A stretch of 64,000 nt of DNA from Patescibacteria group bacterium (GCA_034678605.1 JAXDBQ010000039.1:1172-65171), one strand, 5' to 3'. Positions 1 through 18,375 are shown, counted from the stretch's first letter. Program-made: numbers and translations. The notes: a model not told the origin generated them from the letters alone.

Positions 1-888
1 GGCGGCGGCGGAGTGGCGTTTTGGACCGCGTTGAAGCTGTTGCGCGACGAGCAGTTCAAAAATGTTTTGGTGATGGCCGCGGAAAAATTGGTGGACAACC
101 GCGCCGAAGCGACCACGGATTATATTTTGTCGGCGGCCGAGCGGGTGATCGAACAGCCCGAAGGGCTTTTGTTTCCGGCGCAAAACGCGCTGGTGTTCCA
201 GCAGTACCAAAAAAAATACGGCGGCACGCACGAGGATCTGGAATTGATCGCGTTCAAGAACCATCAAAACGCGGTTGCCAACCCCAAGGCCTATTATTAT
301 CAGCGGTCGGTGCCGATGGAAAAAATAAAAGATTCGCCGATCGTGGCCGAGCCGCTGCGGCTTATGGATTGCTCGCTGTCGGTGAACGGCGGGGCCGCCG
401 CCATCATTTCAAAAGAACAGACCGATATCGAAGTTATCGGTTCGGGATTTGCCACGGATTATATTTTGACTTTCGAAAGGGAAGACCTCACTCATTTCAA
501 GGCCACGCAACTGGCGGCCAAAAAAGCATTTGAAATGGCGCAGTTAACACCCGACGATATCAATGTGGCCGAAGTGCATGACGCGTTCACATCGGTGGAG
601 TTGTTGTCGTATGAAGATCTGGGATTCGCGCAACCGGGCAAGGGCGGGGAGTTGATCCGTTCCGGAAAAATAAATATGGGCGGCGCAATGCCGGTGAATC
701 CTTCGGGCGGGCTCAAAGCCAAGGGCCATCCGATTTCGGCCACCGGCTTGGCGCAAATTTACGAGATCGCCAACCAGTTGCGCGGCAAATGCGGCGCGCG
801 CCAGGTGCCGGATGCAAAAATCGGCCTAACGCACAACATCGGCGGCGCCGGCGGCAGCGTAACCGTCCATATATTCAAGAAAAATTAA
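1..888 (+). CDS. Thiolase-superfamily acetyl-CoA C-acyltransferase, archaeal/SCP-x-like type (5' end outside window)
   Basis: The frame is open from base 1 to TAA at 886-888. C-terminal thiolase signatures are visible: AEVHDAFT, NPSGGLKAKGHPISATG, HNIGGAGG. A hairpin plus T-run follows at 911-944. Confidence 0.85.
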   Translation, partial: GGGGVAFWTALKLLRDEQFKNVLVMAAEKLVDNRAEATTDYILSAAERVIEQPEGLLFPAQNALVFQQYQKKYGGTHEDLELIAFKNHQNAVANPKAYYYQRSVPMEKIKDSPIVAEPLRLMDCSLSVNGGAAAIISKEQTDIEVIGSGFATDYILTFEREDLTHFKATQLAAKKAFEMAQLTPDDINVAEVHDAFTSVELLSYEDLGFAQPGKGGELIRSGKINMGGAMPVNPSGGLKAKGHPISATGLAQIYEIANQLRGKCGARQVPDAKIGLTHNIGGAGGSVTVHIFKKN

Positions 889-910
889 TTTTTTGGTTTG
901 CGGATCAAAA

Positions 911-944
911 ATTACACAGGTTCCACCTGTGTAATTTTGTTTTG
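911..944 (+). terminator. Intrinsic terminator after the thiolase gene
   Basis: attacacagg / cctgtgtaat forms a 10-bp stem with a 5-nt loop, followed by tttgtttt. Confidence 0.7.
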
Positions 945-1041
945 GGCGCGATATAAAAAGAGAAAAAACCAACACTAGTTCCAAAAAAATTTTAAAATTT
1001 GGTTAAAGTTGTTGGTTCAATAGGCGGTCGCGAGACACACA

Positions 1042-1509
1042 CTAGAATGCCGGGCGCACAGAACCGCTACTCACGCCGGTCGGAAAGACTTGGGTCTCAA
1101 TCTGTTCCAGCGTGGAAGCGATCCGGGTGGCAGCGTCGGCGAATATTGATCTTTGGCGCCTCATGGTCATGCCGCTCTGGGATCTCAGATTTCTGGTAAC
1201 GAATCCAGTCATGGCTGCGGTTCGGGCTGGTGCGAGCAGAGCAGAGAAGCGATGAGAGATTTCAGCAGATCTTACTATTAAATAGTCCTCCATGTAGTCG
1301 GCCAAAGCCAGCAGATTGCAGAATAGTCCATCAAATGATACAGATCTTATTCTAGATCCAAAGCCAATTCTCCCCCCGTTATTCAAGCGTGCGTCGGGTG
1401 GAGCGGCTAATCCGATTGGCAGCGCGATAGCAACAATAGCATCTTTGTTGATCTTGAGGACCAGTAGGAGTGCTATCAAAGAAGATGCCAATATCAGAAG
1501 GTTTATCAT
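1042..1509 (-). CDS. Hypothetical membrane-anchored protein
   Basis: ATG at 1509 (MINLLILASSLIALLLVL, an N-terminal TM helix) is preceded by a strong SD, aaggaggt. I recognise no family. The upstream extension to 1575 in the ORF track is unlikely. Confidence 0.5.
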   Translation of the reverse strand: MINLLILASSLIALLLVLKINKDAIVAIALPIGLAAPPDARLNNGGRIGFGSRIRSVSFDGLFCNLLALADYMEDYLIVRSAEISHRFSALLAPARTAAMTGFVTRNLRSQSGMTMRRQRSIFADAATRIASTLEQIETQVFPTGVSSGSVRPAF

Positions 1510-16166: not shown

Positions 16167-16187
16167 TTTGTGGTAAAATGGAAGGGT

Positions 16188-16730
16188 ATGGCGGAAGATA
16201 AAAAATACAATATAATTGAGTTTGAGGAACTGGAATCGACCAATGCCAGGGCAAAAGAATTGGCCGGTCAAGGCGCGGCGGCATGGACGGTGGTGACGGC
16301 CATTCGGCAGACCGGCGGTTATGGCCGCAAGGGCAATATTTGGGTCTCGCCCGCGGGCGGGTTGTATTTTTCGGCGGTTTTGCCCAAGAGCAATGTGGCG
16401 GATTTGCAGATTTTGACGATCTTGGCGGCGTTTTGCGCGGCCAAAACAATAAAGGAAAATTGCGGCATTGAGCCGTTCGTAAAACTGCCCAACGATGTTT
16501 ATATCAACGGCAAAAAAGTTTGTGGGGCGCTCACGGAGAATGTTATTTTGGGCGATGAAATTCTGTCGGTGATCGGCATCGGCGTGAACACCAATGTCGA
16601 AACATTCGCCGGAGAATCGGCGGGCGCCACTTCGTTGAAGATCGAATCGGGGCAAACCATTGACAATCGCGCGCTTTTGGAGCAGATTATAGAGCAACTG
16701 AAGAATGTGTTCAAAGAAATCAGTAATTAA
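16188..16730 (+). CDS. birA: Biotin--[acetyl-CoA-carboxylase] ligase, short form without HTH
   Basis: ELESTNARAKELA, RQTGGYGRKGNIWVSPAGGLYFS (GRGRxGRxW-type loop), KLPNDVYINGKKVCGALTE. Confidence 0.8.
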   Translation: MAEDKKYNIIEFEELESTNARAKELAGQGAAAWTVVTAIRQTGGYGRKGNIWVSPAGGLYFSAVLPKSNVADLQILTILAAFCAAKTIKENCGIEPFVKLPNDVYINGKKVCGALTENVILGDEILSVIGIGVNTNVETFAGESAGATSLKIESGQTIDNRALLEQIIEQLKNVFKEISN

Positions 16731-16824
16731 AAAAGTTAAAAGCGTAAAGCGAAAAGCGTAAAGCAAGAATGCGGCTTTGTATTTTTACTTTGCGTTTTGC
16801 ACTTTTAGTTTTGCGCTTAATATT
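16731..16824. repeat. Word-hairpin family B (gtaaagcg/gcaaagcg words), full hairpin
   Basis: aaaagcgtaaagcgaaaagcgtaaagcaagaatgcgg | ctttgtatttttactttgcgttttgcacttttagttttgcgc. Confidence 0.8.
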
Positions 16825-18375
16825 ATGAATTTTCAAAAAGAAATCGAGCAATTAAACGATAATCTGGCGGCCTTGGAAAGTTCCGAAGCCGCGGAAAAAC
16901 AGCATCAAAAAGGAAAAATGACCGCGCGCGAGCGGGTTTTGGCGTTGTTGGACGCCGAATCGTTCGTGGAGCTGGACGCGCTGGCCGAAACCCGGTTTTC
17001 GCAACTGGGATTGGACAAAAAGAAAGCCGCCGGCGACGCGGTGATCGCGGGGTTCGGCAAGATCAACAATCGGCCGGTTTGCGTTTATTCGCAGGATTTC
17101 ACCAAGGTGGGGGGCGGCTCGCTGGGCGAGATGCATGGAAAAAAGATCGTCAAGATCATCGAGCAGGCGCGCAAAACCGGCTGTCCGGTGATCGGCATCA
17201 TCGATTCGGGCGGGGCGCGCATCCAGGAGGGGGTGGCCAGTTTGGACGGATACGCGGGAATTTTTAACGCCATGGTCAAGGCCTCGGGCGTGGTGCCGCA
17301 AATTTCGGTGATCGCGGGGCCGTCGGCCGGCGGGGCGTGCTACGCGCCGGGGTTGTCGGATTTTGTTTTTATGATGGATAATATCTCGCAAATGTTTATC
17401 ACCGGGCCGGAAGTGATCAAAAAAGTGATCGGCGAAGAAGTGAGTTTTGACGCGCTGGGCGGCGCGACGGCGCATTGCGCCAAATCCGGTTGCGCCCAGT
17501 TTCGTTTTACCAACGAAAAGGATTGTTTTGCCGGCGTGAAAAAACTTTTGGGTTATTTGCCGCAAAACAATTTGGACGACGCGCCGCGGTCAAAAAGTTT
17601 GTTGGCTGAATTGTTCGAGAAAGAGGATAGCGCCAAGCTTTCCGACATTGTACCCGAAGAGGAAACCAAGGGTTATGATATGAAAATCGCGATCGACGAA
17701 ATCGCCGATAACAATTCGTTTTTTGAGATCCAGCCGGAATTCGCGGCTAACGCGATCACCGGGTTGGCGCGGTTGGGCGGCAATGTCGTGGGCATGGTGG
17801 CCAACCAGCCCAAGGCGATGGCCGGCGTTTTGGACATTGATTCGTCGGACAAAATATCTCGGTTTGTGCGGTTTTGCGACTCGTTCAACATTCCGCTGGT
17901 AAATTTGGTGGACACTTCCGGCTATTTACCGGGAACCAATCAAGAGCATGGCGGTATCATCCGCCACGGGGCCAAGGTTTTGTATGCCTATGCCGAGGCC
18001 ACCGTGCCCAAGATCAGCGTGATCTTGCGCAAGGCGTTCGGCGGCGCCTATATCGCGCTGGCCAGCCGCGCTTTGGGTTATGACCGGGTTTTGGCCTGGC
18101 CGGGAGCGCAAATCGCGGTGATGGGGCCGGCGCAGGCGGCTAAGATCATTTACCATCGGGAGATCGCCGCGGCCAAAGATTCGCAGAAGGTTGAAGCCGA
18201 ATTTGCCGAAAAGATTCGCGAATTCAATGATCCGTTTTCCGCGGCTAAATTGGGGCAGGTGGACATGGTGATCAATCCCAAAGATACCCGGACGATTTTG
18301 ATCAAACTTTTGGAATCGTTGTTGACCAAGCGCGAGGAAAAGGTGCAGCGGAAGCACGGAAACACCCCATTATAA
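16825..18375 (+). CDS. Acyl-CoA carboxylase carboxyltransferase subunit (PccB / methylmalonyl-CoA carboxyltransferase 12S type)
   Basis: KMTARERVLALLD, VIAGFGKINNRPVCVYSQDFTKVGGGSLGEMHGKKI, PVIGIIDSGGARIQEG, PQISVIAGPSAGGACYAP, RKAFGGAYIA. Confidence 0.9.
   Translation: MNFQKEIEQLNDNLAALESSEAAEKQHQKGKMTARERVLALLDAESFVELDALAETRFSQLGLDKKKAAGDAVIAGFGKINNRPVCVYSQDFTKVGGGSLGEMHGKKIVKIIEQARKTGCPVIGIIDSGGARIQEGVASLDGYAGIFNAMVKASGVVPQISVIAGPSAGGACYAPGLSDFVFMMDNISQMFITGPEVIKKVIGEEVSFDALGGATAHCAKSGCAQFRFTNEKDCFAGVKKLLGYLPQNNLDDAPRSKSLLAELFEKEDSAKLSDIVPEEETKGYDMKIAIDEIADNNSFFEIQPEFAANAITGLARLGGNVVGMVANQPKAMAGVLDIDSSDKISRFVRFCDSFNIPLVNLVDTSGYLPGTNQEHGGIIRHGAKVLYAYAEATVPKISVILRKAFGGAYIALASRALGYDRVLAWPGAQIAVMGPAQAAKIIYHREIAAAKDSQKVEAEFAEKIREFNDPFSAAKLGQVDMVINPKDTRTILIKLLESLLTKREEKVQRKHGNTPL

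Follow-up and report, generated by a model that had tools for sequence, protein, structure and literature searches.

Fatty acid synthesis on coenzyme A (CoA), independent of acyl carrier protein (ACP), has been described in Sulfolobus, in which a complex of a ketothiolase (KT) and a DUF35 protein condenses acetyl-CoA with acyl-CoAs with a forward efficiency ca. 60-fold over that of the thiolase alone. KT/DUF35 associates with a FabG-like reductase and a dehydratase, an enoyl-CoA reductase closes each round, and the cascade yields acyl-CoAs from acetyl-CoA both in vitro and in vivo, where deleting the enoyl-CoA reductase lowers C8-C10 fatty acids (bioRxiv 10.1101/2024.07.05.601840). Bacteria of the Candidate Phyla Radiation (CPR, or Patescibacteria) are widely described as devoid of membrane lipid synthesis of their own (PMC7242380, PMC12281837) and are thought to obtain lipids from their hosts, with lysolipids enriched in CPR (PMC7242380). 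Here, a 64,000-nt stretch of a Patescibacteria group bacterium genome (GCA_034678605.1, JAXDBQ010000039.1:1172-65171; hereafter the window, to which coordinates refer) was analysed, and a lipid module at its beginning, in which a thiolase and a DUF35-DUF362 fusion precede FabG, FabZ, FabK and PlsC genes, is described. This module probably constitutes a horizontally acquired, ACP-independent route that would use CoA as the carrier for making fatty acyl chains and phosphatidic acid.

Condensing core and lipid genes of the host genome

Genes were called from open reading frames (ORFs) combined with Pfam and NCBIfam profile scans, and genome-wide searches covered all 50 contigs (1.0 Mb, 99.1% complete) of this genome, which carries a bacterial 16S rRNA. 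No PP-binding ACP was found in these searches, nor any ketoacyl synthase (FabF/B), FabH or FabD; the absence of these components, initially noted for the window, thus extends to the genome. The module thiolase is the sole thiolase of the genome, and the earlier view that it is the only condensing enzyme also holds genome-wide. Neither PlsY nor PlsB was found in the genome, the two module PlsC being its only PF01553 acyltransferases. Long-chain acyl-CoA synthetase and acyl-ACP synthetase were not found either, and the only AMP-forming acyl-activating enzyme of the genome is the acetyl-CoA synthetase AcsA (contig C20, L028:952-2871, minus strand; equivalog above cut-off). The acyl-CoAs used by PlsC would therefore not come from scavenged long-chain fatty acids activated by any known route. 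Finally, archaeal GpsA, Acd and EtfAB sequences used as tblastn queries had no match in the genome.

The thiolase was called archaeal-type in the initial annotation, and further comparisons bear this out. In a PDB sequence search, its nearest solved sequences are archaeal-type and include the Methanothermococcus KT from the complex of KT, 3-hydroxy-3-methylglutaryl-CoA (HMG-CoA) synthase (HMGCS) and DUF35 (6ESQ/6ET9), and its top NCBIfam models are archaeal/SCP2-type thiolase subfamilies. It retains the Cys nucleophile (VCGGGG) as well as HDxF and GHP, two motifs described in active acetyl-CoA acetyltransferases of archaeal type.

The second component is a fusion protein whose N-terminus displays a CxxC...CxxC zinc ribbon. 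The DUF35 Pfam HMM (PF01796/DUF35_N) has no match in this protein even at an E-value of 10, DUF362 being the only domain detected, and no match was obtained against PDB sequences. An AlphaFold model was nevertheless computed from a 13-sequence alignment (pLDDT 84), and its N-terminal part matches the DUF35 subunits of 6ESQ (chains E/F/G), 3IRB, 6OK1, MucC (9VBT) and PhlB. This predicted structure confirms a DUF35 fold, with a zinc ribbon and an oligonucleotide/oligosaccharide-binding (OB) fold, for the N-terminal part, and the DUF35-DUF362 fusion reported initially is upheld although the Pfam model is silent. The DUF362 part matches LarA-type racemases, which is consistent with Pfam clan CL0471 linking DUF362 and LarA. 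By analogy with archaeal complexes, the DUF35 part may serve as a thiolase-binding scaffold and is a candidate partner of the thiolase.

Relatives of the module in CPR and DPANN genomes

The closest GTDB homologs (64-67% identity) all belong to Patescibacteria, namely Paceibacterota, Minisyncoccales, Saccharibacteria and UBA5738. Contigs from these four groups share a common gene order: thiolase, DUF359, DUF35-DUF362, FabG, a cyclopropane fatty acid (CFA) synthase-like gene, FabZ-FabK, FabK, PlsC, PlsC, AccC, biotin carboxyl carrier protein (BCCP), BirA and PccB. The next homologs (ca. 33%) come from Nanoarchaeota and Woesearchaeota, both DPANN, and from a single Methanosarcinales bin. The latter locus (L014) shares 70-80% identity with those of Nanoarchaeota and may therefore be a misbinned DPANN contig. 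The DPANN loci (L013-L019) associate FabZ, a thiolase, DUF35-DUF362, a second thiolase, FabG, Acd with EtfB and EtfA, two PlsC and an NAD-dependent GpsA, and acetyl-CoA carboxylase (ACC) genes adjoin the archaeal module in L019. Based on their gene content, these archaeal clusters are predicted to encode a complete route of bacterial type that leads to phosphatidic acid from dihydroxyacetone phosphate and acetyl-CoA. Bacterial fatty-acid genes and a glycerol-3-phosphate (G3P) dehydrogenase have previously been noted in Woesearchaeota by Castelle and colleagues (PMC8204110). A ketoacyl synthase was likewise not found in four other module-bearing CPR genomes and one Nanoarchaeota genome.

The full-length fusion occurs in 9 of the 301 sampled genomes of the Nanoarchaeota phylum versus 1 of the 401 sampled Patescibacteria. 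Phylogenetic placement, which the initial annotation had proposed as a check, groups both CPR proteins with archaeal sequences in unrooted trees built without outgroup: the CPR DUF35-DUF362 proteins form a clade lying within the archaeal ones (support 0.99), and CPR thiolases fall within archaeal module thiolases, their clade being sister to that of the archaeal second thiolase (0.92). These trees point to a transfer of the module from archaea into CPR. The GC content at third codon positions of module genes resembles that of housekeeping genes, and the module is therefore considered a long-term resident. The archaeal fusion copies retain an IGDxSIGxQGNGP motif in their DUF362 part, which is replaced in CPR copies.

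The module also occurs in a cultured organism. Minisyncoccus archaeiphilus PMX.108 lives as an obligate parasite on an archaeon, Methanospirillum, and its fatty-acid pathway was reported as incomplete by its authors, though FabG, FabA-like, FabK and AccC are present (PMC12281837). In the supplementary annotation, the MNSC_05910-05970 cluster comprises a thiolase (MNSC_05910, acetyl-CoA C-acetyltransferase), a DUF362 protein with archaeal COG1545 affinity (MNSC_05920), FabG, FabA-like, FabK, PlsC (MNSC_05960) and AccC. This is the same module as in the window; the published annotation drew no link between its thiolase and DUF362 protein and fatty acid synthesis. The lipids of the Methanospirillum host are isoprenoid ethers only; this cultured CPR bacterium, which carries the complete module, thus has an archaeal host with no fatty acids to provide. 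Acetate addition improves the growth of related CPR that parasitise archaea, which would be weakly consistent with AcsA as a supplier of the pathway.

A possible CoA-based pathway and its alternatives

The initial annotation had put forward an ACP-independent, archaeal-style route as a candidate. This proposal is supported by the absence of the type II fatty acid synthesis (FAS II) genes, by an archaeal-type thiolase with a candidate DUF35 partner as the sole condensing enzyme, by the order conserved in CPR, by the core shared with DPANN and by the Sulfolobus precedent, its operation here being a matter of analogy. The genes listed initially for reduction, dehydration, enoyl reduction and acyl transfer (FabG, FabZ, FabK and two PlsC) are indeed present, and we infer CoA substrates, the reaction order, the assembly of a complex, the acylation of G3P by one of the PlsC and the function of the carboxylase.

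In the proposed pathway, the thiolase and DUF35-DUF362 would form a condensing complex, as in archaeal KT/DUF35 pairs, and join acetyl-CoA, produced from acetate by AcsA encoded elsewhere in the genome, to a growing acyl-CoA; the scaffold plausibly helps to drive this uphill Claisen step through channelling. FabG with NADPH would then convert the 3-ketoacyl-CoA into (R)-3-hydroxyacyl-CoA, which the FabZ domain would dehydrate, and the resulting enoyl-CoA would be reduced by the FabK domain of the fusion or by the separate FabK. The two PlsC would transfer acyl-CoA onto glycerol phosphate and then convert lysophosphatidic acid into phosphatidic acid; because PlsY and PlsB are absent, one of them is presumably the G3P acyltransferase. 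The CFA-like methyltransferase may alter acyl chains in the membrane, while the carboxylase (AccC, BCCP, PccB and BirA), a conserved member of the module, could provide malonyl-CoA or carboxylate acyl-CoAs.

Several points weigh against this pathway. Bacterial FabG, FabZ and FabK are normally ACP-specific and would here have to act on CoA, and FabZ and FabK stand in place of the MaoC dehydratase and of the MDR-type (medium-chain dehydrogenase/reductase) enoyl-CoA reductase of Sulfolobus, respectively. De novo phosphatidic acid requires that one PlsC be a G3P acyltransferase, and no G3P dehydrogenase was found in the CPR genome or in the module. The genome also has no CdsA-family CDP-diacylglycerol synthase, only a CarS-like enzyme. 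The Sulfolobus thiolase route gives mainly C8-C10 chains, perhaps too short alone for a membrane. CFA synthase needs unsaturated chains, for which there is no clear desaturation route, and neither this enzyme nor the carboxylase has an explained place in the pathway. Finally, the predicted complex of thiolase and DUF35-DUF362 with FabG as a partner obtained a score of 0.01, a value that argues neither for nor against binding.

An alternative to de novo synthesis is a remodelling or scavenging kit, in which the PlsC would re-acylate host lysophospholipids, CFA would modify them and the thiolase and reductases would elongate short acyl-CoAs. This explanation is unlikely in our view. It fits the uptake of host lipids and the lysolipid enrichment described for CPR (PMC7242380), a genome devoid of PlsY, PlsB and GpsA, and the action of CFA on membrane lipids. 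It is made less likely by a genome in which nothing can activate long-chain fatty acids, whether as acyl-CoA or as acyl-ACP; in addition, some module-bearing CPR parasitise archaea whose lipids have no fatty acyl chains, and the DPANN version has GpsA, which implies de novo phosphatidic acid synthesis.

More doubtful still is a decarboxylative route in which the carboxylase would feed the thiolase and DUF35 with malonyl-CoA or a carboxylated acyl-CoA, in contrast to a Sulfolobus-like route running on acetyl-CoA alone. In its favour, the biotin carboxylase, BCCP, carboxyltransferase and BirA are conserved in the CPR module, and ACC lies beside the archaeal module in L019. Sulfolobus KT/DUF35, however, does not use malonyl-CoA (bioRxiv 10.1101/2024.07.05.601840), and the thiolase has classic Cys/His thiolase motifs, not FabH-type decarboxylation residues.

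The last alternative, that thiolase and DUF35 form a mevalonate front end supplying acetoacetyl-CoA for HMG-CoA, with unrelated fab and pls genes, was rejected as highly improbable: KT/DUF35 classically partners HMG-CoA synthase in archaeal isoprenoid synthesis, as cited in PMC12960953, and a type 1 isopentenyl diphosphate isomerase (Idi; equivalog above cut-off), noted initially at 53991, does occur at 53979-54557 (+), but HMG-CoA synthase was not found in the genome, nor upstream of the thiolase where the initial annotation had suspected it and where only an MntA/HepT pair and the contig end occur, and the conserved order couples the condensing core to FabG, FabZ, FabK and PlsC in many genomes.

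If the ACP-free route outlined above works, it would overturn, for some lineages, the view that CPR have no lipid synthesis, and it would extend archaeal CoA-based fatty acid synthesis to bacteria in a form that is chimeric with bacterial reductases. It would also represent the transfer of a lipid pathway across the "lipid divide", from DPANN, with their GpsA version and bacterial-type ester lipids, to CPR. As a broader and more tentative proposal, some CPR, including the archaea-parasitising Minisyncoccus and UBA5738 (Yanofskybacteria), might make acyl ester phospholipids de novo via an ACP-free KT/DUF35 pathway acquired from DPANN, where the module would make bacterial-type G3P ester lipids. 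Such parasites would then be freed from bacterial lipid donors, since their archaeal hosts cannot supply these lipids. The question is directly testable with cultured M. archaeiphilus, whose host is free of fatty acids.

Gene map and comparison with described systems

The coordinates of the module genes and of an inserted block are given in Table 1. All the lipid and carboxylase genes listed in the initial annotation were recovered by Pfam and NCBIfam. That description had nevertheless placed all genes on one strand, whereas DUF359 lies on the minus strand, and had overlooked the restriction-modification (R-M) insertion as well as the LarA-like nature of DUF362.

Table 1. Genes of the lipid module and of the block inserted into it
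Feature	Coordinates	Strand	Evidence or position
Archaeal-type thiolase, acetyl-CoA/acyl-CoA C-acyltransferase, 380 aa	-254..888 (1..888 in window)	+	Pfam, NCBIfam
DUF359 GTP-dependent dephospho-CoA kinase, archaeal-type CoaE	1848-2357	-	conserved within CPR module
DUF35-DUF362 fusion, 340 aa; zinc ribbon + OB fold (predicted), LarA-like part	2590-3612	+	Pfam DUF362, predicted structure
FabG-like 3-ketoacyl reductase, short-chain dehydrogenase/reductase (SDR)	3726-4511	+	Pfam, NCBIfam
CFA synthase-like SAM methyltransferase, CMAS family	4548-5765	+	Pfam, NCBIfam
FabZ hotdog dehydratase fused to FabK-like (nitronate monooxygenase-type) enoyl reductase	5867-7393	+	Pfam, NCBIfam
FabK-like flavin enoyl reductase, stand-alone	7498-8439	+	Pfam, NCBIfam
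PlsC-like acyltransferase 1, LPLAT family	8445-9107	+	Pfam, NCBIfam
PlsC-like acyltransferase 2, LPLAT family	9228-9890	+	Pfam, NCBIfam
AccC biotin carboxylase	9994-11568	+	profile scans
BCCP	11535-12095	+	profile scans
Cytosine-C5 DNA methyltransferase, dcm-type with RadC-like N-terminus	12116-13654		between BCCP and BirA
HaeII-type restriction enzyme	13551-14711		between BCCP and BirA
ORF without assigned function	14126-15070	-	between BCCP and BirA
Bro-N protein	15288-16166		between BCCP and BirA
BirA biotin-protein ligase	16170-16730	+	profile scans
PccB/MmdA-type acyl-CoA carboxyltransferase	16777-18375	+	Pfam, NCBIfam

The thiolase gene starts at contig C39:917, 254 bp before the first base of the window, and is preceded by an MntA-family adenylyltransferase antitoxin and a HepT RNase toxin (type VII toxin-antitoxin; L006:278-920) and then by the start of the contig. 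The carboxylase genes are split by the R-M and Bro-N block (12116-16166), which has a GC content of 0.38-0.40 versus ca. 0.48 for the module and a genome mean of 0.47. In a relative (L008), this block is missing and BCCP runs straight into BirA; given its low GC and its absence from that locus, the block is a recent insertion. The N-terminal part of BCCP gave many weak tblastn matches genome-wide and is probably a low-complexity linker.

Directly past the module, an AAA_14 and DUF4143 ATPase is found at 18970-20265 (+), a type of protein that is frequent on mobile or defence elements. It is followed at 20626-21834 (+) by a diglucosyl-diacylglycerol synthase-like glycosyltransferase (PRK13609-like, below cut-off), possibly involved in glycolipid synthesis. 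A HAD phosphatase (21987-22628) was considered as a phosphatidic acid phosphatase and dropped, NCBIfam assigning it to HAD-IB/SerB-like phosphatases. The genome's only candidate for a CDP-lipid synthase, a CarS-like protein of the CDP-archaeol synthase family, occurs at 30318-30896 (+) and possibly makes CDP-diacylglycerol.

The system of Sulfolobus acidocaldarius, which is composed of KT (Saci_1121), DUF35 (Saci_1120), ACR (Saci_1104), MaoC-HCD (Saci_1085) and an MDR enoyl-CoA reductase (Saci_1115), includes an SDR ketoacyl-CoA reductase that uses NADPH and makes (R)-hydroxyacyl-CoA (bioRxiv 10.1101/2024.07.05.601840). The CPR module resembles it in its presumed ACP-free operation on CoA, in the pairing of a thiolase with DUF35 for condensation and in its FabG-like SDR reductase. 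It differs in that its DUF35 forms a single protein with a LarA-like DUF362, in that a FabZ hotdog dehydratase, fused to an enoyl reductase, is found and no MaoC occurs in the module, and in that the enoyl reductase is a flavin FabK of the nitronate monooxygenase type, not an MDR enzyme; it further encodes two PlsC, a biotin carboxylase and a methyltransferase of CFA-like type, and the host is a CPR bacterium. With the Methanothermococcus KT/HMGCS/DUF35 complex it shares the type of thiolase and the predicted zinc ribbon and OB fold of DUF35, but it has no HMG-CoA synthase and carries a DUF362 fusion, and its partners are reductases and acyltransferases. MucABC/PhlABC thiolase-complex acyltransferases have an HMGS-like third subunit and a natural-product context; no HMGS-like gene was found in this genome, and the neighbours here are fab and pls genes instead of polyketide synthases or nonribosomal peptide synthetases.

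FabG, FabZ, FabK, PlsC and a biotin-dependent carboxylase are common to the module and bacterial FAS II, whereas ACP, FabD, FabH and FabB/F are not, so that the thiolase must condense and the carrier is presumably CoA. Engineered reverse beta-oxidation likewise uses a thiolase to extend chains with acetyl-CoA, after which a reduction, a dehydration and a second reduction take place on CoA; unlike it, the module is natural, DUF35-scaffolded and, as proposed here, (R)-specific, instead of relying on (S)-specific enzymes run in reverse. The DPANN clusters share the thiolase and DUF35-DUF362, FabZ, FabG and two PlsC with the CPR module; they alone have a second thiolase, GpsA and Acd/EtfAB as enoyl reductase, and are devoid of FabK, CFA and DUF359. 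Archaeal CoA-based fatty acid synthesis being already known from the 2024 preprint, what is new is a chimeric variant in a new domain and lineage. It is notable both for the prevailing view that CPR do not synthesise lipids and for the apparent passage of the module across the lipid divide, from DPANN to CPR.

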